From Candidatus Zixiibacteriota bacterium (GTDB lineage Bacteria; Zixibacteria; MSB-5A5; GN15; FEB-12), in the NCBI GenBank assembly GCA_040752815.1, contig JBFMGC010000011.1, positions 6,352 through 70,351 on the forward strand: DNA of 64,000 nucleotides. Direction: 5' to 3'. A program made the translations under genes and the position numbers. The notes beneath the pieces were generated by a model. That model was not told the DNA's origin and searched no databases. It saw only the letters and a program-made list of their open reading frames with translations. This document shows, piece by piece, positions 15,446 through 29,227 of this stretch (positions are counted from its first letter, which is position 1; every line of letters begins with the position of its first letter).

Positions 15446-17014
15446 TTGTCAACGGCTAACCGGACGAAAAGTTCCACGGTGGCCTCGGTCAGCAAGGTAT
15501 CCGGCGCCACCGCGATTTCCCGTGTCCTGGGCCTCGTCCGCGAGCAGGCGCAGGCCTATTTCTTCGGCGCGTCGATGGCCACCGACGCCTTCGTAGCCGC
15601 TTTCCGCATTCCCAATTTGCTGCGCGATCTTTTTGCCGAGGGGGCGCTGTCCGCCGCGTTCGTGCCGATTTTTAAAGACAAACTGGTGAACGAATCGGAG
15701 GACAGTTCATTTGCCCTTGCGCGTACGGTCGCCTCGGCGATCCTGCTGGTGGTCGGTGCGATCGTTCTGCTGGGAATGATCGCCACGCCGGTGCTGATCT
15801 TCATTTCGGCGAACGGCTTTACGGAGGACGCAGAGAAATTCGCCCTGACCATCGATCTCACCCGCATCATGTGGGTCTACCTGTTGCTCGTATCGCTTTC
15901 AGCTTTGGTGATGGGTATGTTGAACTCGTTTGGGCGGTTCGGAGTCCCTGCTCTGTCGCCCGCCATGTTCAACCTGGGGATAATCGCCTGTGTGTTTATC
16001 ATGTATCAATGGTTTGACGTTCCGATTTACGCGATGGCCATAGGTGTGCTGGTGGGCGGACTCGGCCAGTTGGCGATGCAACTGCCGCAGCTCTGGCGAA
16101 TCGGGTTCCGCTTCCGCTGGAGTTTCACCTTTTTTGACGAAGGTTTTCGCAAGGTGCTCCGAATGTTCCTGCCCATGGTAGCCGGGATGTCCGCCAGCCG
16201 GGTGAACATCCTGATCAGCACTTTGATGGCGTCATACCTGGTGGAAGGTTCAATCTCGTATCTCAATTACTCTTTTCGATTGATGCACTTCCCGCTGGGG
16301 GTGTTCGCTGTGGCGCTCGGCACGGTCGCTCTGCCCAACGCATCCGAGCTGGCCGCCCGTAGAGAATTTGATCGCCTCGGCGCGGCGCTTTCGGAGTCCC
16401 TCAGCCTCAACCTGTTTCTGATCATTCCCTCGGCGGCGTTTCTGGCGATCATAGGAACCGATCTGGTCGACGTTATCTATCGCTGGGGGCGGTTTTCGCA
16501 GGGTGACACCGTCAACACCGGCCTGGCGCTGCTGCATTATTCGTACGGGCTGATCGGCTTTGCCGCTGTCCGCGTGACCGTGCCGATTTACTATGCCCTG
16601 AAAGATTCCTCGCTACCGATGCGGATTTCGATAATCTCCGTCGCTGTAAACATCGCGCTCTATTATCCCCTGATGAAGCTGCTCAGCTTCGCCGGGCTGG
16701 CCGCGGCAACATCGATTGCCGGTCTGGTAAATTTCGCTTTGCTTCTCGTGTATCTTCCGCGAAAGGGGGTAAGCCTGGAGTACCGACCCCTCTTGTTCAG
16801 TTTCGTGAAAGTTGGCGTGGCATCGGCCGTCGCGTTTTATGGTGCATCAATGCTTCCCATTCCCGCATCATCTGACTGGCCCGAGGGCATCGCCAGGCTC
16901 TGGCAATTCGGGGCGAAGTTTACGGTGGGCGTGATCCTGTATCTGCTTCTATGTGCAATACTGAGAGTACCCGAGATGCGGCTCATCCAAAATCGAATTA
17001 GGCGACGGACATAA
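15446..17014 (+). CDS. murJ: Lipid II flippase MurJ (MviN)
   Basis: SRVLGLVREQAQAYFFGASMATDAFVAAFRIPNLLRDLFAEGALSAAFVPIF is the MurJ N-terminal signature. About 14 TM segments and 522 aa. TTG start as given by the ORF track. Confidence 0.9.
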   Translation: MSTANRTKSSTVASVSKVSGATAISRVLGLVREQAQAYFFGASMATDAFVAAFRIPNLLRDLFAEGALSAAFVPIFKDKLVNESEDSSFALARTVASAILLVVGAIVLLGMIATPVLIFISANGFTEDAEKFALTIDLTRIMWVYLLLVSLSALVMGMLNSFGRFGVPALSPAMFNLGIIACVFIMYQWFDVPIYAMAIGVLVGGLGQLAMQLPQLWRIGFRFRWSFTFFDEGFRKVLRMFLPMVAGMSASRVNILISTLMASYLVEGSISYLNYSFRLMHFPLGVFAVALGTVALPNASELAARREFDRLGAALSESLSLNLFLIIPSAAFLAIIGTDLVDVIYRWGRFSQGDTVNTGLALLHYSYGLIGFAAVRVTVPIYYALKDSSLPMRISIISVAVNIALYYPLMKLLSFAGLAAATSIAGLVNFALLLVYLPRKGVSLEYRPLLFSFVKVGVASAVAFYGASMLPIPASSDWPEGIARLWQFGAKFTVGVILYLLLCAILRVPEMRLIQNRIRRRT

Positions 17015-17030
17015 TTGTGAGCGGGGGACT

Positions 17031-19331
17031 GTGCTGAAAAGTTATCCCAGTCTTTTCCTACTTGGCTTTGTAGTCGCTGGAATCGTGGCGGCGTACCTGG
17101 TTACGCCGCCGTTGGCGTTGTGTGTCTCAGTAGGCGTAATTGCCCTGGCGCTGGCGGTATGGCAGCGCAGGAAGGAGCGCTGGGCCGTGTCGGCTCTCCT
17201 GGCCGGGTTGGCTCTGACTGCGGTGGCTGCGGTCAGCTTCACGCTGCGGTTCCATGTCGGCGGCACGGATCATATTCGGCAGGTCCTCGCGGTACCCACG
17301 CTGTGCCGGGTGTTCGGACAGGTCGACGACTGGCCTGAAATGAGACGGGGGAGGACCGAAATAACTATTGAAGTCGACTCGCTCTCCTTCCGCTCCGCTG
17401 CTGCTTCGCAGACTCGTCGAGTCTACGGACGCCTGCTTTTGAAGGTAACCGACACCACCACTTTGCTCCAGCGCGGCGATCGCATCGCTTTCTCTGCGCG
17501 CGTCTACCCGGTGCGTGCCGGGCGACACGACGACTTCGATTACGGTCGCTATCTCAACCTGCGGGGAATTTCCGCGCAGGCTTTCCTGCCCACCCTGCTA
17601 AGCGTACATGTGGATCGGCGCCCCCCTGTCGGTTTCTGGCCGATTGTAGATGACATCAGGGAGACCATTCGCGCGAGCTTCGACCGAAACCTCAGCCCGG
17701 TGACATCGGCCCTGGCGCGCGGTTTCCTCATCGGCGAAACCAGGGATATTCCCCCTGCCGTCTACACCCTGTTTCGCGACAGCGGCACGCTGCACCTGCT
17801 GGCAGTGTCCGGCGCCAACGTGGCCCTGGTGATCATCTTCTTTCTGTGGGTGATGCGCCCGTTCTGGCTGGGACCTGCCACCCGTTCGATCGTTCTCCTG
17901 ATTGTTATAGCTGTATTCGCAGGGGTTTCTTACGGGGACCCGTCGGTCATGCGCGCGTCTATTATGGCAGCGCTTGTTCTGGGTGCGCGCTTGCTCGGAC
18001 GCCCGTTCGATCTGAACAATATCATCGCGGTGACGGCGTTGATCGTCTTGCTCGTTCGGCCGGCGCAGCTTTTCGACGTAGGTTTCCAGTTGTCTTTCGT
18101 GACTGCCTGGGGGCTGGTTTTTGTCGTGCCGCGGCTGGCCGTGCTGTTCCAGCCGGTTCACGAGCGTCGCTGGTATCGGTGGCTGGTCTTGCCGGCAATG
18201 GTCGCTTTGGTCGCGCAGTTGTTTTCGACACCCTTGATTGCGCTGTACTTCGAGCGAATTCCCGTCATCTCTCTGGCGGCCAATCTGGCAGTTGTGCCGT
18301 TGGTGTCAGTCGGCGTCATTGGTATACTCGTCCTGCTGGTAGCTGATCTAATATGGCCATTGCTCGGCGCCTGGGTGGGCAGCCTAGTGAATCTCTGGCT
18401 GAACGCAGTCGTGATAGTCCTGCAGGTTTTCGGTGGCGACCACATGCCGGTTCTGGGGGCCGGTGCGCTTTTCGCTTCAAGCCTGGGGTCGTTGATAGTC
18501 GTCTTTATCTATGTGCTGCTCACTCTGACTGTAGTGGCAATCGTCCGCACATGGGCCAGAAAGGTTGTTGTATTCGGAGTTCTTCTGGCAGCAAACGCAT
18601 ACCTCGTCGCCGGTGTCGCGGCATCGTTGGACGGCGATTCAGCACGATTGCGAATCGAACGCATCCCCGGCGGATTGAGCGTTACGCTCTCGACACCCGA
18701 ACAAGCCGATGGCGATCTCGTCATCACCAATCTCACCCGTACGGCCTACGCCGCCGATTCCAGCATGCTCGTCCCGAACCTGCGCCGTCAAAATGTCTCA
18801 CGGCTTCGCCACCTGGTGGTGTTGGCCGCAGATTTCGATGCCATGGACTACATTCTGCGGCTGGCGCAGCGGTTTTCCGCTGACACCATCTGGATAGCTC
18901 GAGGTCTTGCAGGTACGGTCAGTGACGCGCAGGGCTTTCGTCGTGACATCGCATACGCCGGCGCCATTGTCCCGTTCGGCGGCCGAATCGATTCCACGGG
19001 ACGGTCGGGATGCCACCTTGGAGACGGGTATGTCGGCATTCGGGTCGGCGACGCTCAAATTGAAGTTGTGGAGTCGACGTCGCTGCATCGGCCGTCTTCA
19101 CTACCTGAGGCACAGAACCGTTTACTGGTAATCAGCGGACGCTGGACGCCAAACTCCGAAGACTGGCGCCGGATTGCAGAAGCCCGATATGACCGAATCA
19201 TCTGTTCAGAAATCGCACAGGCGTCCGGAGCCTCGTGGCCGGATGTCGAATTTGACACCGATGCCGTCACCCCAGACTTCGTGCAGGATTTGTCGCGCCT
19301 TGGCATGATCGAAATCGACCTCCCTCGCTGA
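17031..19331 (+). CDS. comEC: ComEC/Rec2 family DNA internalization channel protein
   Basis: N-terminal TM/OB region, then the competence domain with GTLHLLAVSGANVALV and many TM helices. The C-terminal ~230 aa has the position of the metallo-beta-lactamase domain but lacks an HxHxDH motif. Confidence 0.85.
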   Translation: MLKSYPSLFLLGFVVAGIVAAYLVTPPLALCVSVGVIALALAVWQRRKERWAVSALLAGLALTAVAAVSFTLRFHVGGTDHIRQVLAVPTLCRVFGQVDDWPEMRRGRTEITIEVDSLSFRSAAASQTRRVYGRLLLKVTDTTTLLQRGDRIAFSARVYPVRAGRHDDFDYGRYLNLRGISAQAFLPTLLSVHVDRRPPVGFWPIVDDIRETIRASFDRNLSPVTSALARGFLIGETRDIPPAVYTLFRDSGTLHLLAVSGANVALVIIFFLWVMRPFWLGPATRSIVLLIVIAVFAGVSYGDPSVMRASIMAALVLGARLLGRPFDLNNIIAVTALIVLLVRPAQLFDVGFQLSFVTAWGLVFVVPRLAVLFQPVHERRWYRWLVLPAMVALVAQLFSTPLIALYFERIPVISLAANLAVVPLVSVGVIGILVLLVADLIWPLLGAWVGSLVNLWLNAVVIVLQVFGGDHMPVLGAGALFASSLGSLIVVFIYVLLTLTVVAIVRTWARKVVVFGVLLAANAYLVAGVAASLDGDSARLRIERIPGGLSVTLSTPEQADGDLVITNLTRTAYAADSSMLVPNLRRQNVSRLRHLVVLAADFDAMDYILRLAQRFSADTIWIARGLAGTVSDAQGFRRDIAYAGAIVPFGGRIDSTGRSGCHLGDGYVGIRVGDAQIEVVESTSLHRPSSLPEAQNRLLVISGRWTPNSEDWRRIAEARYDRIICSEIAQASGASWPDVEFDTDAVTPDFVQDLSRLGMIEIDLPR

Positions 19332-19517
19332 TTAGTCTCAGAGCTCATGCGCCAAGGGATGTCGATTTAGCGTGCCATAGGGCGATCCTGCCCAACAGCG
19401 CCCCGGCTGGCTGCCCTTTCGCTTAAAGGAAAGCCCCTTTTGGCCCGATAACTATAAAGAATTGGCGTCAAAACAGGACCAGACTGCCTATCGAACTATG
19501 TCCAGGAAGTGACTAAG

Positions 19518-20729
19518 ATGAGTTTATCAGGTAATCTGAGAACAGTGGCGTTCCCCGACATCCTTCAGCTTCTTGCCACCGGCAAGAAAACCGGAATGCT
19601 GGAGTGCCGTACCACGACCCGCCAGAAGGAAGTTGCCTTCAAAGACGGCAATATCGTGTACGCGTCGTCGGTCAACAGCGCGGAGGATTTGCTCGGCAAC
19701 ATGCTGCTGAAACGGGGGCGGATTTCCAAGTCGGATCTCGAACGCGCGATCGGCCTGCACAAACAGACCGGCCGCCAGCTCGGCACGACCCTGATCGACA
19801 TGGGGCTGTTCGACAAGAATGAGATCGCCGAGTGCCTCAAGCTCCAGATCGAGGAGATCGTGTACAACCTGTTCTCGTGGCAGGAGGGCGATTTTGTCTT
19901 CCACGAGGGAGTCGCGCCGCGCAACGCGCCCTTTTTGATCGAGCTGGCCACCATGAACGTGATCATGGAGGGCACGCGCCGAATCGACGAGTGGATGGAG
20001 ATTCAGAAAGTACTTCCGGCCGACGACGTTCTGCTGCGCATCTCCAAGTCACCTAAGTCGAACCGAGAAGAACTGACCATTTCGATGGATGAGTTCCGCC
20101 TGCTGTCGCTCATCAACGGTGAACGAACCCTCCCCGAGCTGATCAATCTCTCGCCTATGGGCGAGTTCGTCACCTGCCGAGCGCTCTACCGTCTGATTGT
20201 CAATCACCTCGTTGAGGTGGCCGGCAAGAGCGAAAAGGCCCAGGATGCGGAACTCGAGGACGAGGAAGAGGCGGTGCTGGCGATTGTCTTCAAGCTGTAC
20301 TCAAATTGTTTCTATCAGGTGCACTCCCGCGTAGCCCAAATGCTGGGCGGCGAGAACACCAAGTACCCGTCGTTCGCATCGAAGTACCGCTCCGGCCTGA
20401 CCACGTTCTTCCCTGGGGTAGATCCCCGCTCCGACCTGATGCCGCCATTTGAAAAGTTTGTGGCGGCCGTGCGCTCCATGCCCGAACACATCCGCTATCA
20501 TCAGCTCATGGCCGGACTGGAGAGGATGCTTTCCGAGCAGCTCCTGTATGTCTACCAGCTTCTGGGCGACGGGGTCTTTCATGACACGATGACCAAAGTG
20601 AAAATGGAAATATCGGAACCGCTGGCCAGTCGGCGCGATCTGGTCAAACGGTACAACATCGAAGAAGATTTCTACGGTACGATCAAGCGTGCCGACAAAA
20701 TGGTGAAGCTTTTGAGGGGTTCGTTATGA
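19518..20729 (+). CDS. PATAN/DUF4388 domain protein
   Basis: The N-terminus SGNLRTVAFPDILQLLATGKKTGMLECRTTTRQKEVAFKDGNIVYASS matches the DUF4388 (PATAN) signature as I recall it. Start is set at the ATG at 19518, 8 nt after AGGAAG. The C-terminal ~200 aa is not recognised. Confidence 0.7.
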   Translation: MSLSGNLRTVAFPDILQLLATGKKTGMLECRTTTRQKEVAFKDGNIVYASSVNSAEDLLGNMLLKRGRISKSDLERAIGLHKQTGRQLGTTLIDMGLFDKNEIAECLKLQIEEIVYNLFSWQEGDFVFHEGVAPRNAPFLIELATMNVIMEGTRRIDEWMEIQKVLPADDVLLRISKSPKSNREELTISMDEFRLLSLINGERTLPELINLSPMGEFVTCRALYRLIVNHLVEVAGKSEKAQDAELEDEEEAVLAIVFKLYSNCFYQVHSRVAQMLGGENTKYPSFASKYRSGLTTFFPGVDPRSDLMPPFEKFVAAVRSMPEHIRYHQLMAGLERMLSEQLLYVYQLLGDGVFHDTMTKVKMEISEPLASRRDLVKRYNIEEDFYGTIKRADKMVKLLRGSL

Positions 20730-21088
20730 AGATGACCGGCATAACTACGTTGGTTCTGGTTTTTGGCCTGGTCGGCCGCAGCGAGGCGGCCAACCTGGGT
20801 GTGATTGTCAGCCCGCCGAATTTTCTGAGTCTGGTGGTGCTTGGCCTCGCGGTGGCGGCCATCGTGGTCGGCTTCCAGCTCTTGGGAGTCATTCGCGGAG
20901 GTTACCTTAGCCGGGCGTGGCAGATCTTTATCGCCGGTTTCGGCGTCCTGGCGCTCGCTCAAATCCTCACTCTGGTGCGGGTGACCGAGATTGCACCCAT
21001 CCCGGCCTGGGTGGCTCCGGCTTTGACGGCAATCGCCGCGGGAGTGTTCTTCTACGGAGTTTTCGAGACGAAAAAGGTCTTGAGCTGA
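20726..21088 (+). CDS. Small integral membrane protein (signal peptide + 3 TM)
   Basis: An ATGA start/stop overlap with the upstream gene suggests translational coupling. MKMTGITTLVLVFGLVGRSEA is followed by three hydrophobic helices. Confidence 0.6.
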   Translation: MKMTGITTLVLVFGLVGRSEAANLGVIVSPPNFLSLVVLGLAVAAIVVGFQLLGVIRGGYLSRAWQIFIAGFGVLALAQILTLVRVTEIAPIPAWVAPALTAIAAGVFFYGVFETKKVLS

Positions 21089-21099
21089 GTTTATTTGTG

Positions 21100-21128
21100 T
21101 TGACATAACCGCTTGGGAGATATATAAA
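21100..21128 (+). promoter_or_regulatory. Strong sigma70-like promoter inside the mgl/Roadblock cluster
   Basis: TTGACA (21100-21105), a 17-nt spacer, then TATAAA (21123-21128), 66 nt upstream of the TPR-Roadblock ATG. Confidence 0.5.
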
Positions 21129-21194
21129 TACCACAGCCCGGATTCGACCTCTCAGGCAACCGATTGATATTTCGGAAGTTACGAGCGGAAGCTA

Positions 21195-22064
21195 ATGACA
21201 GTCGACTTGGAAATCGATAATCGCATCACCAAGTGCCAGAAGATACTGGAGATGGATCCCAATTCGCAGATCTTCGCGGCGCTGGCGGAGGCGTACCGCA
21301 AAAAGGGCGAACTGGAAAAGGCGTTCCAGGTCTGTCACAATGGCCTGCGCCTGCATCCTAACTACGGCGCCGCCCACATGGTGATGGCCAGGGTCAACCT
21401 TGATCGCGGTCTCTACGATTGGGCTGAAGCCGAGTTGGAGAGGGCGCGGCAGGTCGACGGGAACAGCCGGACGATCGAACTCCTTCTGGCGGAGATCTAC
21501 ATATACAAGGGCGAGTACCAGGCCGCCATCCGCCTACTCAAGCGGCTCGCCGCATCCGATCCCGGCAACGATCATGTTCAGCGCCTGCTCGATATCGCTC
21601 TGCGCATTCCGCAGGAACAACAGGCTGAGCTTGGTGGCCCGGAGCCGGAACCGGAGCCGGTAAAACCTGAGCCGGTCACGCCGACTGCGCCCGTGCCAAG
21701 ACCCTTGGCTCCGACCCGCCTGAGTCCGGCTGAGATGCTGGCCGAATCGCTTCAGATAGGCGGTGTGGGCGGGGCGTTGTATGTCAATTCGGAAGGCTTG
21801 GTCCTCGAGACGAAGTGGAGTTCCAAAGCCGATCCGGCGGTATGTGGTGCGTCCATGGCTGAGGTCAGCAAGTTCCTCGACCAGGAGCTGATGAAGATTT
21901 CATTTGGCCGGGTTGGAGCAGTGCTTATCGAGACGGGTCGCCAGGTGTTCTATATCATCCGCGTAAGCGGCGGGATGTTTGTCATCATGAGCGACGCCAA
22001 CGTAAATCTCGGTTCGCTGCGAATGAGGATGGCCACGCTGGTCGAACGAGTGCAGATACTTTAG
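21195..22064 (+). CDS. TPR repeat - Pro-rich linker - Roadblock/LC7 domain fusion protein
   Basis: The N-terminus has about 3-4 TPR units (FAALAEAYRKKGELEKAFQVCHNGLRLHPN.., LLLAEIYIYKGEYQAAIRLLKRLAASDPGN). A PEPEPEPVKPEPVTP linker follows. The C-terminus GGVGGALYVNSEGLVLETKW...VLIETGRQVFYIIRVSGGMFVIMSDANVNLGSLRMRM is a Roadblock/LC7 pattern. Confidence 0.7.
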   Translation: MTVDLEIDNRITKCQKILEMDPNSQIFAALAEAYRKKGELEKAFQVCHNGLRLHPNYGAAHMVMARVNLDRGLYDWAEAELERARQVDGNSRTIELLLAEIYIYKGEYQAAIRLLKRLAASDPGNDHVQRLLDIALRIPQEQQAELGGPEPEPEPVKPEPVTPTAPVPRPLAPTRLSPAEMLAESLQIGGVGGALYVNSEGLVLETKWSSKADPAVCGASMAEVSKFLDQELMKISFGRVGAVLIETGRQVFYIIRVSGGMFVIMSDANVNLGSLRMRMATLVERVQIL

Positions 22065-22075
22065 GCAGGGCAGAT

Positions 22076-23059
22076 ATGGAAATGACCGGTCAGACTAACC
22101 GACGAATCATCATCTTCTCTTTGGGTGCGGTGATTGTACCTCTGGTGGTGTTTCCGTCCCGCCTCGGGACCGATATTGCCCGGGCCTCCCTGGTCAATGC
22201 GCTTTACGAACTGGTTTACTACGGCGTTGTGATATTCATATTCCACCGCAGTACCACGCTGCTTCGGCTGATTCAGGGAGCCGGGGTCTGTTTGATCTAC
22301 CGCCTCGCCCTCGGCGCAGTGTTCGGACTGCTGCTGGCGGCTGTCTATTCGCTGCAGACCAGGGTATCACTCACGCTGGGGATGTCCGGTTATCTCCCCG
22401 CTATACTGTTTCAAATAGCGCTGGCGCCGTTCGTGCTCAAGCCGGTGGTCGATCAGCTCTATGGTGATGAACCAGTACGGCGTCGGGCTGCCCCGCCAAT
22501 TCAGACCGACACGCGCGCGGAGTTTGTCCGCCCGGCACACGTTCCGGTCAAGCCTAAGGCGGCCCCGGAGGCGCCGAAGGTCCCGGCATTCGCGGCTGCC
22601 CGTAAACCCGATTCCGCAGCATACCACCGGAGTGCGGACTCCATGCGTGAACTTAACGGTTTCGATAGAGCCGTCTATTACCTTGGCGAACACAGCGCCG
22701 TGCAGCTGGCGACAATCGTGGACAGCGAGGGACTCACTCTGGGCAGCTTCAAGCGCGGTCAGGTCCGCCCTGAAGACTGGGCGCCGCTGGCTCTGCTGGT
22801 CGTGGGGGAGAGCGGCCAGGTGCTGGAGCGGGGGAATTTGGACGGTCTTGAAAAAGTCGACTTAATACTAAAAGATAAACGCCTGGTTGTGGCGCGGCCC
22901 GAGGGTCTCTACCTGATGGTCCTGGCCGAGCGCCACGATGATGACCTGCTCAACATCCGCATCAACCAGGCGCTGGAGATGATTAATAAGTTTGTCGCCG
23001 AGCGTTACGGCAATAAACTGCACCCGAACGCGGAGAGAGTTCATGTACCAAGTGCTTAG
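22076..23059 (+). CDS. Polytopic membrane protein with C-terminal Roadblock/LC7 domain
   Basis: About four N-terminal TM helices and a basic/Pro-rich linker. The C-terminus VQLATIVDSEGLTLGSF...KVDLILKDKRLVVARPEGLYLMVLAERHDDDLLNIRINQALEMI is a Roadblock pattern. Confidence 0.65.
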   Translation: MEMTGQTNRRIIIFSLGAVIVPLVVFPSRLGTDIARASLVNALYELVYYGVVIFIFHRSTTLLRLIQGAGVCLIYRLALGAVFGLLLAAVYSLQTRVSLTLGMSGYLPAILFQIALAPFVLKPVVDQLYGDEPVRRRAAPPIQTDTRAEFVRPAHVPVKPKAAPEAPKVPAFAAARKPDSAAYHRSADSMRELNGFDRAVYYLGEHSAVQLATIVDSEGLTLGSFKRGQVRPEDWAPLALLVVGESGQVLERGNLDGLEKVDLILKDKRLVVARPEGLYLMVLAERHDDDLLNIRINQALEMINKFVAERYGNKLHPNAERVHVPSA

Positions 23060-23384
23060 CGATCTCAATAAGACGCCCGGTGTGACCGGCTCAATGGTAG
23101 TCGGTAACGACGGTATCGTAATTGCCGCCGACATGGCGTCCGGTTTCGAGGGTGAGACAGTCGGCGCCCTGGCGGCGTCGATCACGTCCAACATCCAGAA
23201 ATCCCTGGACCGTTTGGACACCACGCCCTGGACTCAGGTGACAATAGAGGCGGACGATGCCAAGCTCTTCTTCACCGACGCCAGCCTGGGCATACTCGTG
23301 GTCACTACCGAAAAGGTGGTGAACATCGGGCTGATTCGTCTGGAGATACGAAACGCCATAGACAAGCTCAAGCTGTCGACCTGA
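23043..23384 (+). CDS. Roadblock/LC7 domain protein (MglC-like, stand-alone)
   Basis: Start is set at the ATG at 23043, a 17-nt overlap with the upstream gene. MYQVLSDLNKTPGVTGSMVVGNDGIVIAADM...TIEADDAKLFFTDASLGILVVTTEKVVNIGLIRLEIRNAI. Confidence 0.7.
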   Translation: MYQVLSDLNKTPGVTGSMVVGNDGIVIAADMASGFEGETVGALAASITSNIQKSLDRLDTTPWTQVTIEADDAKLFFTDASLGILVVTTEKVVNIGLIRLEIRNAIDKLKLST

Positions 23385-23412
23385 TCAGTCAGAGAATAGG
23401 ATTACTTTCTAT

Positions 23413-24471
23413 ATGGTCTCAATCAACTACTCGGCTCGTGAGGTATGCTGCAAAATTGTCTACTACGGACCGGGTTTATCCGGCAAGACGACCAACCTGC
23501 AGTATATCCACTCGAAGGTGCCGCAGAACACCCGGGGCAAGCTGATCTCGCTGGCCACCGAAGCCGACCGCACCCTGTACTTCGATTTCCTGCCCATCAA
23601 TATAGGCACGATCAACGATTTTCAGGCGAAGTTCCAGTTGTATACGGTGCCGGGACAGGTCTACTACAACGCTACCCGCAAGCTGGTGCTTCGAGGCGTG
23701 GACGGCCTGGTTTTTGTCGCCGACAGCCAGGCGGACAAGATGGATGAGAACATCGAGTCGCTGGCCAACCTCGAAGAAAACCTGCGCGAATACGGCTACG
23801 ATATCAATCAGTTGCCGCTGGTGCTGCAGTTCAATAAGCGTGACCTGCCGAACGTGCTGTCGGTTCAGGAACTCAACGCCCGTCTTAATCCCCGAGGCCT
23901 GCCTTTTTTCGAGGCCTCGGCGCCATCAGGAAAAGGAGTATTCGACACCCTCAAGTTGATCATAAAGCTGGTGCTGGACAAAGCCAAATCCGCCGGATCG
24001 TCGGCGATGAGCCAACGGGCAGCGCCGCCGCCAGCGGAAGCGGCGCCGTATCCATCCGGTGAGCGGGTGGCCGCCGCGCCGCAGCCGACCGCCGAGACAA
24101 TTCCGACTCGAACCGACTCGCCCCAGCCGGTAACCGCCGCACCCGACTGGAGAACCGCCGCGCAACCCGCGGCGAGTGAGTGGAACGCTCCGTCGCAGCC
24201 GACAGTGGCGGTAGCTCCCGATCCCGCGTTTCGTCCGTATCCGGGCAGTGATCGCCAGATGTCTGCGGAGCGTCGCACGGGCCGCGTGCCTGTCGTGTCC
24301 GCACCACGGGAGCTGCCGGCGGCATCATTAGAGAAAAACATCGGTTCCGATTCACGTGAGCACGCGACCGGCGCCGGTTCGATGAATACACCCCAGATGG
24401 CCCCCTCGCTCAGGCGTCGCGCCGCGAACAAGAAACGCAGCTTTTTCAAGCGCCTGTTCGGGATCAAATAG
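23413..24471 (+). CDS. mglA: MglA-type Ras-like GTPase with ~155-aa C-terminal low-complexity extension
   Basis: aa 1-195 are collinear with M. xanthus MglA as I recall it. Matching features are INYS.RE..CKIVYYGPGLSGKTTNLQYI (P-loop), ADRTLYFDFLP (intrinsic Arg), YTVPGQ (switch II), NKRD and GVFDTLK. A Pro/Ala-rich tail then ends in KKRSFFKRLFGIK. Confidence 0.88.
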   Translation: MVSINYSAREVCCKIVYYGPGLSGKTTNLQYIHSKVPQNTRGKLISLATEADRTLYFDFLPINIGTINDFQAKFQLYTVPGQVYYNATRKLVLRGVDGLVFVADSQADKMDENIESLANLEENLREYGYDINQLPLVLQFNKRDLPNVLSVQELNARLNPRGLPFFEASAPSGKGVFDTLKLIIKLVLDKAKSAGSSAMSQRAAPPPAEAAPYPSGERVAAAPQPTAETIPTRTDSPQPVTAAPDWRTAAQPAASEWNAPSQPTVAVAPDPAFRPYPGSDRQMSAERRTGRVPVVSAPRELPAASLEKNIGSDSREHATGAGSMNTPQMAPSLRRRAANKKRSFFKRLFGIK

Positions 24472-24489
24472 TTTTGCCTGGAGGACACT

Positions 24490-24975
24490 ATGTCTGACGA
24501 CAGTCTGATTATCTACGAAGAAGAAATAGCAACCATTGATGCACTTCTGAAGAAGATGCTCAAAGGGGCCGAGGCCAAGTGCGCTCTGCTGGTGGACAAG
24601 GACGGCCACCTGATCACGCGACAGGGCTTTACCCACTCGCTTGATACCACTGCGCTGGCGGCACTGCTGGCGGGCTCTTTCGCCTCGACCCGGGAAATCG
24701 CCCGGCTGGTCGGCGAATCCGAGTTTTCGGTGCTCTTCCACCAGGGTAAGAAAGACCACATCCACATGTCTATTGTGGGGGACCGCTCCATTCTTGTAGT
24801 TATATTCGACGATCGCACCACGATCGGTATGGTTCGCCTGTACGCCAAGGAGACGGCCGATGAGCTCGCCCGGGTGTTCAAGAACATCCGGGAGCGGAAA
24901 GAACCAGCCGAAGCGCTAAGCGGGGATTTCTCGGACAAGGCGCAGGAAAGGCTGAACGACATCTTCCAGGATTGA
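24490..24975 (+). CDS. mglB: MglB (Roadblock/LC7 GTPase-activating protein of MglA)
   Basis: LIIYEEEIATIDALLKKMLKGAEAKCALLVDKDGHLITRQG...LDTTALAALLAGSFA...HMSIVGDRSILVVIFDDRTTIGMVRLYAKETADEL closely parallels M. xanthus MglB as I recall it. A GGAGGA Shine-Dalgarno is present. Confidence 0.85.
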   Translation: MSDDSLIIYEEEIATIDALLKKMLKGAEAKCALLVDKDGHLITRQGFTHSLDTTALAALLAGSFASTREIARLVGESEFSVLFHQGKKDHIHMSIVGDRSILVVIFDDRTTIGMVRLYAKETADELARVFKNIRERKEPAEALSGDFSDKAQERLNDIFQD

Positions 24976-25052: not shown

Positions 25053-26750
25053 ATGTCTGCGGAACTTAGTGCCATTCTGGTAAAAGCGGGGAAGATCACC
25101 CAGGATCAGGCGAATGCGGCACTGGAACGTTCCAAACAGACCAAGGAAAAATTCTCCAAAGTCCTGGTTGACCTGGGGGCGGTCGCCTCGGAAGACGAGG
25201 TCATAAACTTTGTCGGCAAGCACCTTAAGATCGGTGCGCTGCGGCTGAGCGATGTCGAGCTCAACCCCGAAGTAGTCAAGCTCATCCCGCTCGATATCGC
25301 CCGCAAGTTCAAAGTCATCGCCATCAGCAAGATCGGCAAGACGCTGCTGGTGGCCATCAGCGACCCCAATAACATCTACGTACTCGACGCTATCAAGTTT
25401 ATCACCGGTTGCAATGTCCAGCCGGCGATCGCGCCCGAAAGAGAAATCGAGAAGGCGATCGAGCAATACTACGCCGACACCGGCGCCCTGTCTGAAATCG
25501 TCAAAGGTCTCGAAGACGATCCGGATCTCGAGGTCGTTTCCACCGAGGACATCCCCTCCGAGACCGACCTGATGTCTCAGATTCAGGACAAGCCTCTGGT
25601 CAAGCTGGTGGATTCGATCATCGGCGACGCCATCCGGATGGGGGCTTCCGATATCCACTTCGAGATGTACGAGAAGAAGATTCGCGTGCGCTACCGTATC
25701 GACGGCGAGCTTCAGGAGATGGCCCCGCTGCCCTTCAAATACCGCGCCGCCATCGTGTCGCGTATCAAGATTATGGCCGAACTGGACATTTCGGAACGTC
25801 GGTTACCCCAGGACGGGCGCATCAAGATCAAGATCACCGGTCGCACGGTCGACCTTCGTGTCTCGGTGCTGCCGACCATATTCGGCGAGAAGGTCGTAAT
25901 GCGAATTCTCGATCCGATGGCGCTGCGGATAGATATGACCCAGCTCGGTTTTCGCGAGCCCGACCTGGCTCGCTTCCATGAGCGCATTCACGCGCCGTTC
26001 GGCATTGTGCTGGTCACCGGCCCGACGGGTTCAGGTAAGACGACAACGCTGTACTCCGCGCTTCAGCAGTTGAATACAATCGATGTCAACATCATGACCG
26101 CCGAGGACCCGGTCGAGTTCAATTTCGAGGGGATTAATCAGGTAGCGGTCAAGCCGGACATCGGACTGACCTTCGCCAACGCCCTGCGCTCATTCCTTCG
26201 TCAGGACCCGGACATCATCATGGTCGGTGAGATTCGTGATAGTGAGACCGCCGAGATCGCCATCAAGGCGGCGCTCACGGGCCATCTCGTGTTTTCGACG
26301 CTGCACACCAACGACGCGCCCTCGTCGGTGACTCGTCTAATCGATATGGGTACGCCCAATTACCTCGTGGCGTCGGCCACGCAGCTCATCATGGCCCAGC
26401 GCATGGTCAAAAAGATCTGCCAGAAGTGTAAGGAAGAGGTCAACCTGACCGCAGAGCAAGTGGAAGCGCTCAAGATGGGGCCGGAGATGCTCAAGGGTAT
26501 TCGCGCGTTCCGGGGGAAAGGGTGCAGCGCCTGCAACAACACCGGCAAGTCGGGCCGAACGGGTATCTATGAGGTAATGCCGGTAACTCCGGCTATCGAA
26601 GAGATGATCCTCAAAAAGGCTGCCGATTCCGCCATTAGAAAAGTCGCGATGGACGAGGGGATGTTCTCGCTGCGCATGGCGGCGGTGGACAAGATGAAGC
26701 AGGGCGTCATCAGTATCGACGAAGTTTTCTCTGTGACCGGTACGAACTAA
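25053..26750 (+). CDS. pilB: Type IV pilus assembly (extension) ATPase PilB / GspE family
   Basis: N-terminal T2SSE_N-type domain. Walker A GPTGSGKTTTLYS, Asp box, Walker B/His box (IIMVGEIRD, GHLVFSTLHTND) and a tetracysteine CQKC..CSAC. Confidence 0.9.
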   Translation: MSAELSAILVKAGKITQDQANAALERSKQTKEKFSKVLVDLGAVASEDEVINFVGKHLKIGALRLSDVELNPEVVKLIPLDIARKFKVIAISKIGKTLLVAISDPNNIYVLDAIKFITGCNVQPAIAPEREIEKAIEQYYADTGALSEIVKGLEDDPDLEVVSTEDIPSETDLMSQIQDKPLVKLVDSIIGDAIRMGASDIHFEMYEKKIRVRYRIDGELQEMAPLPFKYRAAIVSRIKIMAELDISERRLPQDGRIKIKITGRTVDLRVSVLPTIFGEKVVMRILDPMALRIDMTQLGFREPDLARFHERIHAPFGIVLVTGPTGSGKTTTLYSALQQLNTIDVNIMTAEDPVEFNFEGINQVAVKPDIGLTFANALRSFLRQDPDIIMVGEIRDSETAEIAIKAALTGHLVFSTLHTNDAPSSVTRLIDMGTPNYLVASATQLIMAQRMVKKICQKCKEEVNLTAEQVEALKMGPEMLKGIRAFRGKGCSACNNTGKSGRTGIYEVMPVTPAIEEMILKKAADSAIRKVAMDEGMFSLRMAAVDKMKQGVISIDEVFSVTGTN

Positions 26751-26911
26751 CACTCTCCAGGCTTTATCGTCCCCCCCAGAATCATTTGCCCGTCAATCAC
26801 TTAAACCGGCCTACCGGCACTTTGGCGGTCAAGATTCTGCTCTGATTACCGATAACAGACAGAGAACAACTTTGGGAGTCAAAACCGCTTTCGCAGAAAG
26901 AGGAGTTCTCG

Positions 26912-27988
26912 ATGGTCTCGTTGCGCGAATTGCTGGAACAGATGGTTCGAATGGGTGCATCGGATCTGCACCTCACCGCCGGATCCCCGCCCGTGGTGCG
27001 GGTTGACGGTAAACTTCAGCGAATGCCTTATGACATGCTCACCAGTGAGGAAACGAAGAAGATTGCCTATTCGATGCTCAACGAGAAACAGAAGCTAAAA
27101 TTCGAACAGAATTGGGAGCTTGATTTTTCTTTCGGTATCGAATCAATGAGCCGGTTCCGCGCCAACATCTTCATGCAGCGTGGCAACGCGGCAGTCGCTC
27201 TGCGCCAGATTCCCTATGAGATCAAGACTTTTGAGCAGCTTGGTCTGCCTAAAGTGATATCGGATTTCGCCAAGTTGCCGCGTGGCCTCGTACTCGTGAC
27301 TGGCCCGACCGGCTCCGGTAAATCGACCACGCTCGCGGCCGTAATCGACAAAGTCAATAAAGAGCGCCCGGTGCACATAATCACGGTGGAAGATCCGATC
27401 GAATACCTGCACCGCCACCAGATGGCGCTCATAAACCAGCGCGAGGTATACTCGGATACGCCGTCGTTCGCGTCCGCACTGAAGTACGCCCTACGCGAGG
27501 ACCCGGACGTGGTCCTGGTGGGTGAGATGCGTGACCTGGAGACGATCGAATCGGCGCTCTCGATATCGGAGACCGGCCACCTGGCTTTCGCCACGCTGCA
27601 CACCAACTCGTGCGCGGAGACGATCAACCGAATTGTGGACGTCTTCCCGACCAATCAGCAGGAGCAGATTCGGGTGACGCTGTCGTTCACGCTGCAGGCC
27701 GTGGTGTCACAGGTTTTGATACCGAAAATCGGCGGCGGGCGGGTGCTCGCCATGGAAATCATGATTGCCACGCCGGCGGTCAGAGCGATCATCCGCGATG
27801 ACAAGATCCATCAATTGTACTCGATGATCCAGTCCGGCCAAAAATACGGAATGAAGACGATGAATCAGTCGCTGGCCGAGCTGTACCAGGCCGGTAAGAT
27901 TTCCATCAACGATGCCATGGGCACCAGCCACAACCAGCAGGAGCTGAGCGAAATGCTCTCGCGGCAGAAAGCGCCGGCCTACGCCTGA
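26912..27988 (+). CDS. pilT: Twitching-motility (retraction) ATPase PilT
   Basis: GASDLHLTAGSPPVVRVDG, GPTGSGKSTTLAA, VLVGEMRDLETI, GHLAFATLHTNS and an AIRNLIRE-like AVRAIIRDDKIHQ motif. 358 aa. Confidence 0.9.
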   Translation: MVSLRELLEQMVRMGASDLHLTAGSPPVVRVDGKLQRMPYDMLTSEETKKIAYSMLNEKQKLKFEQNWELDFSFGIESMSRFRANIFMQRGNAAVALRQIPYEIKTFEQLGLPKVISDFAKLPRGLVLVTGPTGSGKSTTLAAVIDKVNKERPVHIITVEDPIEYLHRHQMALINQREVYSDTPSFASALKYALREDPDVVLVGEMRDLETIESALSISETGHLAFATLHTNSCAETINRIVDVFPTNQQEQIRVTLSFTLQAVVSQVLIPKIGGGRVLAMEIMIATPAVRAIIRDDKIHQLYSMIQSGQKYGMKTMNQSLAELYQAGKISINDAMGTSHNQQELSEMLSRQKAPAYA

Positions 27989-28027
27989 GGCGGCGTGCTG
28001 AGATCGGAATGAGAAAGGAATACTGAT

Positions 28028-29227
28028 ATGCCAGTTTTCGAGTACAAGGGCAAGACCCTGGCCGGGGCCGCAGTCCAGGGCACCATGAAGGCCAACACCC
28101 GCGCCGATCTGGAGCGAGTGCTGCGCCAGAACCGGATCATGGTGGTATCGATAAACAAAAAGGCCGCCGAGATCGATATCAAATTTGGCACCGGCATCAA
28201 GAGGGTCGAAATATCCCGCTTCACACGCCAGTTCTCGACCATGATTGGGGCCGGCCTGCCCATGGTGCAGTGTCTCGAAATCCTGGGCGCCCAGACCGAG
28301 AACAAGGAACTGGCGAAGGTAATCAACCAGGTCCGCGAGGCTGTACAGGGCGGCGCAACCCTCTCCGATGCGATGAAGCGGCATCCGAAAATATTCGATG
28401 AGCTCTACACCAACATGGTGGAGGCCGGTGAAGTCGGCGGAGCGCTCGATACCATCCTGGTCCGCCTTGCGGTCTACCGCGAAAAGGCCGACCAGCTCAT
28501 TCGCAAGGTCAAAGGCGCCATGGTATACCCGAGCGTCGTTATGATTGTCGCCGCCCTGGTCACATTTGGTATGTTGACCTTTATCGTGCCGGTGTTCGCC
28601 AAGATGTTCGCCGGACTCGGTGCTGAGCTTCCCGAGCCCACCAAAGTGGTGCTGGCGATATCGCACTTCCTGAGTTCAAACATCCTATACCTGTTCTTTG
28701 GGTCGGTTGGTCTGCTGGCGGTGTTCCTTTATTGGAAACGCACCCCCAGCGGCGGTATGGCGGTGGACAAGGCTATGCTGCGGATTCCGGTCCTCGGTAA
28801 TCTGGTCAGGAAATCGTCAGTGGCGCGTTTCACCCGCACACTGGCGACACTTCTGGCCTCAGGCGTTTCGATTCTGGAAGCCCTTGACATCACCGCCAAG
28901 ACGGCGGGCAACAAAGTCGTGGCGCGGGCGATTAACCGCTCGGTCGTGGCCATCGCTGAGGGCGATACCATCACCGGACCGTTGAAGACGTCCGGCGTCT
29001 TCCCGCCAATGGTAATCCAGATGATCGGCGTCGGCGAAAAGACCGGCGGCCTGGACGAGATGTTGAACAAGATCGCCGACTTTTACGACGAGGAAGTAGA
29101 CGCGGCCGTGAGCGCGCTGACCTCGGTGATCGAGCCGGTGATCATCGTGTTCATGGGCATTGTGATCGGCGGCATTATGATCGCGATGTATCTGCCGATG
29201 TTCGACATAATTGGAAAGTTCAACTGA
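28028..29227 (+). CDS. pilC: Type IV pilus platform protein PilC / GspF family
   Basis: Two GspF repeats (FTRQFSTMIGAGLPMVQCLEIL.. and FTRTLATLLASGVSILEALDI..). Three TM segments. 399 aa. Confidence 0.9.
   Translation: MPVFEYKGKTLAGAAVQGTMKANTRADLERVLRQNRIMVVSINKKAAEIDIKFGTGIKRVEISRFTRQFSTMIGAGLPMVQCLEILGAQTENKELAKVINQVREAVQGGATLSDAMKRHPKIFDELYTNMVEAGEVGGALDTILVRLAVYREKADQLIRKVKGAMVYPSVVMIVAALVTFGMLTFIVPVFAKMFAGLGAELPEPTKVVLAISHFLSSNILYLFFGSVGLLAVFLYWKRTPSGGMAVDKAMLRIPVLGNLVRKSSVARFTRTLATLLASGVSILEALDITAKTAGNKVVARAINRSVVAIAEGDTITGPLKTSGVFPPMVIQMIGVGEKTGGLDEMLNKIADFYDEEVDAAVSALTSVIEPVIIVFMGIVIGGIMIAMYLPMFDIIGKFN

Follow-up and report, generated by a model that had tools for sequence, protein, structure and literature searches.

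The stretch of DNA analyzed here (the window) comprises 64,000 nucleotides (nt) from a Candidatus Zixiibacteriota bacterium (GenBank assembly GCA_040752815.1, contig JBFMGC010000011.1, positions 6,352 to 70,351), and all coordinates below are positions within it. On its + strand lie two adjacent genes whose products each join a Roadblock/LC7 domain to a different kind of module. The first (21195..22064; 289 amino acids [aa]) encodes a tetratricopeptide repeat (TPR)-Roadblock fusion, TPR-Robl, and the second (22076..23059; 327 aa) encodes a transmembrane (TM)-Roadblock fusion, TM-Robl. They are followed on the same strand by a stand-alone Roadblock gene, Robl (23043..23384), by mglA (23413..24471) and mglB (24490..24975), and by genes for the motor of type IV pili. 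MglA and MglB form the model of a bacterial Ras-like switch that sets cell polarity and the placement of type IV pili. How the MglA switch is recruited to its place varies from lineage to lineage and is understood only in part. Roadblock proteins dimerize and act as platforms for GTPases; their homo- and heterodimers form through the β3 strand and the α2 helix.

The N-terminal region of TPR-Robl (aa 1-145; 21195-21629) is assigned as a TPR module by both sequence profile and predicted fold. Within aa 8-135, Pfam matched TPR_19 (E = 1.1e-15), TPR_14, TPR_2, TPR_7, and TPR_1, all above their cutoffs, and in the AlphaFold2 model of the protein (47 sequences; mean predicted local distance difference test score [pLDDT], 85.6), aa 2-145 form eight helices, read as three TPRs plus capping helices. 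Foldseek searches with this half likewise returned consensus TPR proteins, TTC0263, and MamA. A Pro/Glu-rich linker, disordered in the model (aa 147-172; 21633-21710; GGPEPEPEPVKPEP...), leads into the C-terminal domain (aa 178-285; 21726-22049), which sequence profiles and modeled fold both identify as Roadblock/LC7. For the window protein alone, the Pfam match to Robl_LC7 was sub-threshold (aa 180-262; E = 0.007; 16.5 bits, cutoff of 23), and LAMTOR5 matched the C terminus weakly (E = 0.0012). Robl_LC7 was matched by all 22 of the 22 orthologous C-terminal domains scanned (best E = 9e-9), and against PDB sequences, the family profile of the domain matched the Asgard Roadblock structure 7yh1 (E = 2e-4), with LAMTOR2 next. 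The model shows an α-β-β-α-β-β-β-α fold in this region, with pLDDT values mostly above 90, and its Foldseek matches were Roadblock 7yh1, 9jue, LAMTOR2, and MglB, with TM-scores of 0.7 to 0.85.

TM-Robl begins with a four-TM domain (aa 5-125; 22088-22450) and continues through a disordered basic, Pro-rich linker (aa 131-186; 22466-22633) to a Roadblock domain (aa 187-315; 22634-23020) and a conserved C-terminal peptide (aa 316-327). The four hydrophobic segments (approximately aa 7-31, 37-56, 65-95, and 103-125; Kyte-Doolittle value of ≥1.6 over 19 residues) coincide with the AlphaFold2 helices at aa 5-25, 33-56, 62-91, and 95-120. Among 75 orthologs, the mean number of Lys and Arg residues was 8.2 in the N terminus, the second loop, and the segment after TM4, versus 1.8 in loops 1 and 3, and TM1 and TM4 contained no charges. 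By the positive-inside rule, this distribution predicts a cytoplasmic location for the two termini and hence for the Roadblock domain, and TM-Robl is predicted to be a polytopic inner membrane protein. The same alignment contains charged residues inside the membrane, Glu45 in TM2 (74/75) and Arg76 in TM3 (75/75), as well as conserved prolines in or beside the helices (P27, 75/75; P108, 74/75; P118, 71/75; P22, 60/75) and the near-invariant Tyr49 and Tyr106 in or next to them. Weak Pfam matches of the TM domain to CHASE8 (5 members), FixQ, and other families, all with E values of >0.01, were discarded as noise.

The C-terminal domain of TM-Robl is likewise identified as Roadblock/LC7 by family profile and predicted fold. 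No Pfam or NCBIfam model matched the window protein taken alone; Robl_LC7 was matched by 17 of 44 family members (best E = 1.7e-8), and the family profile matched dynein LC7/roadblock (5.7e-6) and the Asgard Roadblock 7f8f (2.9e-4). In the AlphaFold2 model, aa 187-315 adopt the Roadblock topology with a pLDDT of approximately 95, and the top Foldseek matches were 7yh1, LAMTOR2, 3kye, and Myxococcus xanthus MglB 6hjm (TM-scores, 0.8 to 0.87). The initial annotation had proposed about three to four TPR repeats, a Pro-rich linker, and a Roadblock domain in 21195-22064 and about four TM helices, a basic linker, and a Roadblock domain in 22076-23059; family profiles, ortholog scans, AlphaFold2, and Foldseek bear out both architectures, together with hydropathy for the second. 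Its account of the gene arrangement also stands, as the two genes are 11 nt apart and lie directly upstream of a stand-alone Roadblock gene and mglA; the median gap across loci is also 11 nt.

Both fusion genes are real and conserved rather than chance open reading frames, because at least 99 homologs of TM-Robl and at least 120 full-length homologs of TPR-Robl exist. The relatives of TM-Robl are nearly all 290 to 360 aa long, and those of TPR-Robl share >50% identity and were found among 700 matches, most of which are probably generic TPR matches. For many relatives of TPR-Robl, either PF03259 matches had been precomputed or the JGI name is "Roadblock/LC7/MglB family." Among 1.84 billion representative proteins, only 133 matched a profile of the 4-TM domain, and virtually all of these are 296 to 356 aa long with the domain at residues 1 to 130; the few shorter ones are probably fragments. 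The 4-TM module is thus confined to this architecture among the proteins searched. The fusions had been called unusual, which holds for the 4-TM module but not for the fusions within their own phylum, as both are universal within Zixibacteria. The TPR module evolves slowly (mean pairwise distance, 0.40), in contrast to its own Roadblock domain (1.11), and the TM domain of TM-Robl evolves fast (1.17).

The stand-alone Robl gene encodes 113 aa from an ATG at 23043 and overlaps the end of the TM-Robl gene, an overlap present in 74/74 loci; the gene is likewise 113 aa long in locus L001. Its product matched Robl_LC7 in Pfam (E = 3.5e-14), and its profile matched the Asgard Roadblock 7yh1 (1e-12), CvnB5 (8.8e-5), and, weakly, MglB (6e-3). 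The Roadblock domain of TPR-Robl aligned to it with a probability of 98.4% (hhalign; E = 4.7e-15) and is its close paralog. In profile-profile comparisons, the Roadblock domain of TM-Robl was equidistant from Robl and from the Roadblock domain of TPR-Robl (E of approximately 1e-6). The product of mglB (161 aa) is a canonical Roadblock protein of the GTPase-activating protein (GAP) type, with matches to M. xanthus MglB 6izw (E = 2e-38) and Robl_LC7 (E = 2.7e-14); its score for the NCBIfam MglB model NF052242 was 94.9 bits, under the model cutoff of 200. Neither fusion protein matched that model, and judged by their profiles, the fusion Roadblock domains are not MglB orthologs sensu stricto. The MglB family sensu lato has been defined as Robl_LC7 proteins encoded within four genes of mglA (Wuichet and Sogaard-Andersen 2014, PMC4316618), and both fusion genes fall within this definition, as both are found, in every locus, no farther than three genes upstream of mglA. 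Mean pairwise distances were 0.31 for Robl, 0.18 for MglA, and 0.22 for MglB.

MglA (352 aa) consists of a canonical G domain (aa 1-197; 23413-24003), matching M. xanthus MglA over aa 3-197 (E = 1.8e-81), and a C-terminal tail (24004-24468). The tail comprises a variable low-complexity linker followed by ...MAPSLRRR...KKRSFFKRLFGIK, with the last 13 aa at 24430-24468. The end motif P-x-MAPS-L-R-R-R-(3-5 residues)-KKRGFFKRLFGIK was found in all 68 of the 68 complete orthologs. The membrane-targeting sequence of Escherichia coli MinD is KGFLKRLFGG (PMC5471200), which the last residues of MglA closely resemble. The hydrophobic moment of the MglA tail was 0.28 to 0.30, versus 0.45 for the MinD sequence, a difference that is not decisive, and the argument for membrane targeting is based on the similarity to the MinD motif and on its conservation. 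In the divergent clades, MglA has a Glu/Lys-rich linker and ends in GGFLWRWIQKI, GRFLWRWLEKI, or EFFLWRWIKSLIK, all basic, aromatic (Trp-rich), and amphipathic; as these ends differ in sequence and are amphipathic nonetheless, the principle of a G domain, a long tether, and a membrane-binding helix seems to be conserved even without sequence conservation. MglA is therefore probably a membrane-tethered bacterial small GTPase, and its MinD-like tail would independently place the GTPase cycle at the membrane. In two loci of a divergent clade (L083, 9238-10587; L084, 9238-10479), the tail extends the whole MglA protein to 413 to 449 aa and includes a strongly charged stretch rich in Glu and Lys, which resembles a single α-helix or a coiled coil. 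No MglA with a membrane-targeting tail was described in the literature searched. The 2014 census of prokaryotic small GTPases excluded proteins of >240 aa (PMC4316618), and tailed MglA proteins like that of Zixibacteria would thus have been missed.

The gap before the TPR-Robl gene (21089-21194; approximately 105 nt) is conserved and contains a conserved σ70-type promoter on the + strand (21100..21128; TTGACA, 17 nt, TATAAA). The pattern TTGAC[AT]-17 nt-TAnnnT was present in 68 of 81 orthologous gaps, with a spacer that was always 17 nt. The consensus promoter scanner skipped this promoter, whose -10 hexamer ends in A, and it was read from the sequence. Its conservation indicates that TPR-Robl heads a conserved transcription unit, and the promoter appears to be the head of an operon of TPR-Robl, TM-Robl, Robl, mglA, and mglB; the scanner found no convincing intergenic terminator within the block. 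The 5' untranslated region (UTR) would be approximately 65 nt long. A GTAACCnnTTG-like motif recurs in it (GCAACCGATTGA at about 21153-21166 of the window), possibly as a binding site for a regulator or as an RNA element. Rfam gave no match in this conserved 5' UTR.

A scan for the TPR-Robl gene with one genome per GTDB species (146 species; 80 loci retrieved; 84 related loci in all) allowed gene order to be compared by tblastn with twelve window proteins, read as far as each contig extends. The common order is MurJ, ComEC, PATAN, a small membrane protein, TPR-Robl, TM-Robl, Robl, MglA, MglB, and PilB, followed by PilT and PilC in most loci. From PATAN to PilB, this order is invariant in the 84 related loci, including clades with only approximately 30% identity in TM-Robl; three loci from such divergent clades retain MurJ/ComEC through PATAN to PilB. 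In distant clades PilT and PilC are not adjacent, whereas ComEC, MurJ, and PilB are. F-type ATP synthase genes follow PilB in place of PilT/PilC in the clade of L083 and L084. Of the records of the 80 loci, most name Zixibacteria or GN15 in their titles, and roughly one-third are labeled otherwise. Many records (L004, L007, L010, L012, L025, L067, L082, and others) are titled "uncultured Ignavibacteriales," "Calditrichota," or "Ignavibacterium sp.," which disagrees with the Zixibacteria assignment of their closest relatives; either the labels are placeholders or mislabels, or the block also occurs in neighboring FCB-group phyla.

On balance, we consider it probable that TM-Robl anchors a multi-Roadblock assembly, which TPR-Robl joins through its Roadblock domain while its TPR module holds a partner, and that the MglA cycle is confined to the membrane beside PilB, PilC, and PilT. 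The two fusions would be accessory Roadblock subunits of an MglA/MglB module that is specific to Zixibacteria and firmly tied to the genes for the type IV pilus motor. TM-Robl, with its cytoplasmic Roadblock domain on a flexible basic tether, would serve as the membrane anchor, and possibly the signal input, of this assembly. TPR-Robl would be a soluble adaptor whose fast-evolving Roadblock domain docks into the assembly, most plausibly paired with its paralog Robl, and whose slowly evolving three-repeat TPR module recruits a conserved partner; candidates are PilB, the PATAN protein, and two conserved peptides, namely, a linear motif such as MAPSLRRR in the tail of MglA and the C terminus of TM-Robl. 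MglA, with a membrane-targeting helix of its own, would cycle between GTP and GDP on the membrane surface beside PilB, PilC, and PilT, with MglB acting as the GAP, and the output would be a gating of pilus assembly or polarity. Candidate outputs are the polarity or activity of pili or, in view of ComEC as a constant neighbor, DNA uptake. The analysis establishes the identity of the domains, the predicted topology, the conserved operon with its promoter, the MglA tail, and the uniqueness of the 4-TM domain; how the proteins interact and in what stoichiometry, which ligand the TPR module binds, and what the module puts out are inferences. In suggesting a Roadblock platform at the membrane linked to the pilus motor, the initial annotation was in keeping with the invariant PilB linkage, the predicted cytoplasmic position of the Roadblock domain, the MglA tail, and the PATAN protein. 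As to a pairing of the two fusions with each other, profile comparison instead points to Robl as the close paralog of the Roadblock domain of TPR-Robl, and the TM-Robl gene always overlaps that for Robl.

Several observations weigh against this proposal. The three extra Roadblock domains are remote from the operon's MglB, with hhalign probabilities of 1 to 59% (59% for the domain of TPR-Robl and 1.3% for that of TM-Robl). Likewise, no MglC chain was among their PDB sequence or fold matches, in a PDB set whose inclusion of MglC was unverified. Given this remoteness from MglB and the lack of detectable similarity to MglC, roles cannot be transferred by homology. Mirror-tree partial correlations across 41 loci were uninformative on Roadblock pairing (residuals of ≤0.3), and the approach was without power, as domains of the same polypeptide were uncorrelated too (TPR module versus its own Roadblock domain, 0.06; 4-TM domain versus its own Roadblock domain, -0.06). 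The conserved intramembrane charges suggest a role for TM-Robl beyond passive anchoring. Furthermore, the block is always linked to ComEC and MurJ as well, and all host organisms are uncultured, so that phenotypes are unavailable.

A more specific arrangement, which we regard as tentative, would stack a TM-Robl dimer, a TPR-Robl/Robl heterodimer, and an MglB dimer into a Ragulator-like three-layer platform at the base of the pilus, with MglA on the same membrane through its MinD-like helix at the end of a long flexible tether. By analogy, the MglA tail would then be the functional equivalent of the hypervariable region of Ras/Rho proteins with its polybasic/lipid anchor. If true, Zixibacteria would run their small-GTPase cycle in a eukaryote-style, membrane-delimited way, on what would be the first multi-Roadblock scaffold for a GTPase known to be anchored to a bacterial membrane. 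In M. xanthus, Roadblock dimers of the RomR/MglC/MglB system stack in a manner regulated by MglA-GTP, and the authors of that study explicitly compare the stacking to the three Roadblock layers of Ragulator-Rag (PMC10329633).

The M. xanthus MglA/MglB/MglC system shares with the Zixibacteria locus the same GTPase and GAP, an additional Roadblock protein beside MglB, and a link to type IV pili. However, the Zixibacteria locus has three extra Roadblock domains instead of one, of which one is joined to a polytopic membrane domain and another to a TPR module; its MglA has a membrane-targeting tail of its own, and its genes lie in one operon beside pilB, pilT, and pilC. RomR, RomX, and RomY were not seen in the Zixibacteria block. 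Ragulator-Rag (LAMTOR1-5 and the C-terminal Roadblock domains of RagA/C) is similar in that several Roadblock domains serve a small GTPase at a membrane and a dedicated subunit supplies the anchor. LAMTOR2 was among the best structural matches of both fusion domains (TM-score of approximately 0.8), and there were weak profile matches to LAMTOR5 and LAMTOR2. In contrast to Ragulator, with its lipidated wrapping subunit, the anchor here would be an integral 4-TM domain fused to a Roadblock domain, MglA has no fused Roadblock domain, and heterodimer layers are hypothetical. The resemblance is best taken as an analogy, possibly reflecting deep common domain ancestry, and not as orthology.

TPR proteins that bind MglA and promote pilus formation are known, namely, SgmX (PMC7519303) and Bd2492 (PMC3983030). 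As in those systems, a TPR protein is coupled to MglA and type IV pili, in Zixibacteria through gene linkage. Unlike the compact three-repeat module fused to a Roadblock domain in Zixibacteria, however, the known proteins are longer (Bd2492, 353 aa; its M. xanthus homolog MXAN_5766, 1031 aa; PMC3983030), and no Roadblock domain has been reported in them. The similarity is generic to TPRs, and we treat the comparison as analogy only. Actinobacterial conservons (CvnA-D) also combine a membrane protein, a Roadblock protein, and an MglA-family GTPase in one operon (PMC4316618). However, no HisKA/HATPase or DUF742 match was found with Pfam or NCBIfam in any protein encoded from 19509 to 24975, and with neither kinase nor DUF742, the locus is not a conservon. 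In addition, the Zixibacteria GTPase is of the canonical MglA type with its intrinsic Arg finger context and not of the conservon type (Group 2), and the output context here is the pilus motor. Cyanobacterial PatA-type PATAN regulators resemble the locus in that a PATAN protein is encoded with pilus motor genes, but the Zixibacteria PATAN protein lacks a receiver domain and has a cyclic di-GMP (c-di-GMP)-binding insert.

The literature searched contained no paper linking Zixibacteria to MglA or Roadblock proteins and no description of TPR-Roadblock or TM-Roadblock fusions; the only fusion mentioned in the 2014 survey is Response_reg-Robl_LC7 (PMC4316618). In database annotation, the fusion proteins are labeled as TPR, as hypothetical, or with a COG label only. 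The novelty of the locus lies in an MglA/MglB module that is elaborated with membrane-anchored and TPR-bearing Roadblock subunits. With its three extra Roadblock domains and a self-targeting MglA, the locus would represent a different, phylum-wide, and never-studied solution for MglA recruitment. If the parts assemble as proposed, it would be a bacterial counterpart of the Ragulator-Rag principle, in which stacked Roadblock dimers anchor a small GTPase to a membrane. It would then be relevant to the evolutionary history of GTPase platforms and offer a compact five-gene system that could be reconstituted in vitro.

Among the other explanations considered, the one that survives best, though we think it somewhat unlikely as the principal role, is that TM-Robl is mainly a sensor. 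Its 4-TM domain would sense a membrane-borne signal through the buried Glu45/Arg76 pair and pass it to the GTPase through the Roadblock domain, a route likened to that in actinobacterial conservons from the membrane kinase CvnA to the Roadblock protein CvnB and the GTPase CvnD; proton-motive force, a lipid, the PilC platform, and the small neighboring membrane protein are candidate signals. Indeed, a buried Glu/Arg pair is unusual for a mere anchor, and the near invariance of E45 and R76, the conserved prolines (P27, P108, P118, and P22), the dedication of the 4-TM domain to this architecture, and the constant co-encoding of the small membrane protein all point in this direction, as do the CvnB5 match of the Robl profile (E = 8.8e-5) and the conservon precedent (PMC4316618). 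However, the locus encodes no kinase and no CvnC/DUF742, TM-Robl has no periplasmic domain and loops of only approximately 8 to 12 residues, and the fast evolution of the TM domain (1.17) is more typical of an anchor. A sensor role would be compatible with the anchor model and does not exclude it.

It is unlikely that the extra Roadblock proteins instead act on the nucleotide state of MglA, as an alternative GAP, a co-GAP, or dimers resembling guanine nucleotide exchange factors (GEFs), with the TPR module localizing TPR-Robl. Roadblock and longin dimers are a common platform of small-GTPase GAPs and GEFs (PMC3747258), all three proteins are MglB-family members coupled to mglA under the definition of PMC4316618, and some systems are known to have more than one MglB for each MglA. 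In addition, Robl evolves as slowly as MglA and MglB (0.31 versus 0.18 and 0.22). However, the locus already has a canonical MglB, to which the extra domains are only remotely related, and MglC, the sole second Roadblock protein characterized in an MglA system, leaves GTPase activity unchanged (PMC10329633). Sensor and direct GAP/GEF roles are both non-exclusive rivals.

We consider it quite improbable that the module regulates pilus-dependent DNA uptake or envelope functions, with the fusions acting as adaptors to ComEC or to MurJ-linked machinery and not to the PilB motor. The genes for MurJ and ComEC (15446-19331) lie directly upstream of PATAN wherever the contig reaches, distant clades included (an extra major facilitator superfamily [MFS] transporter gene is inserted between ComEC and PATAN in L002), and the distant clades keep ComEC, MurJ, and PilB while PilT and PilC are not adjacent. 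This constant linkage between ComEC and the pilus genes hints at a role in DNA uptake. However, a 177-nt gap and a separate conserved promoter lie between the MurJ/ComEC genes and the Roadblock operon in the window, synteny alone is no proof of a functional link, and all characterized MglA systems act on pilus or gliding polarity (PMC7519303, PMC10329633, and PMC3983030). Finally, the reading that the Roadblock assignments are weak-profile artefacts and that the products are just a generic TPR protein and a hypothetical membrane protein, in line with the sub-threshold or missing Pfam matches of the window proteins alone and with the NCBI names of the 100% identical proteins ("tetratricopeptide repeat protein" for TPR-Robl and "hypothetical protein" for TM-Robl), is very improbable and was rejected, as four independent lines (family profiles against PDB sequences, ortholog scans, AlphaFold2 topology, and Foldseek TM-scores) agree on Roadblock.

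The PATAN (DUF4388) protein (19509..20729, + strand; 406 aa; PF14332, E = 1.4e-32) is encoded by the first gene of the conserved regulatory block and keeps its place in every locus. At aa 62-113 it has an insertion with two LGxxLLxxG...Q repeats in tandem and an MshEN-type c-di-GMP-binding motif (NF053729, 46 bits; cutoff, 38), and no known family matched the C-terminal 240 aa. The protein is likely to be a receptor for c-di-GMP with input into the pilus/MglA module. In Synechocystis, PilB and PilC are bound by PATAN domains (bioRxiv 10.1101/2021.06.11.447907), and neighborhoods of PATAN and MglA/B genes have been noted previously (PMC4316618).

The gene for the small membrane protein (20726..21088, + strand; 120 aa) starts in an overlap with the PATAN stop codon. 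Its product has an N-terminal hydrophobic, signal-like segment and approximately three TM segments, matched no known family, and may act as a partner of the TM-Robl 4-TM domain in the membrane. It recurs in this position in 83 of the 84 loci; the exception is L002, in which tblastn did not detect it although a gene of 91 aa occupies the site. The type IV pilus motor genes (25053..29227, + strand) comprise pilB (25053-26750), pilT (26912-27988), and pilC (28028-29227), and PilB matched T2SSE (E = 1.8e-137) plus MshEN; the orthologs in L001 have Pfam calls as well. At the other end of the neighborhood, MurJ and ComEC are present upstream wherever the contig reaches (L001-L084), preceded by rpsT on the opposite strand where gene calls existed.

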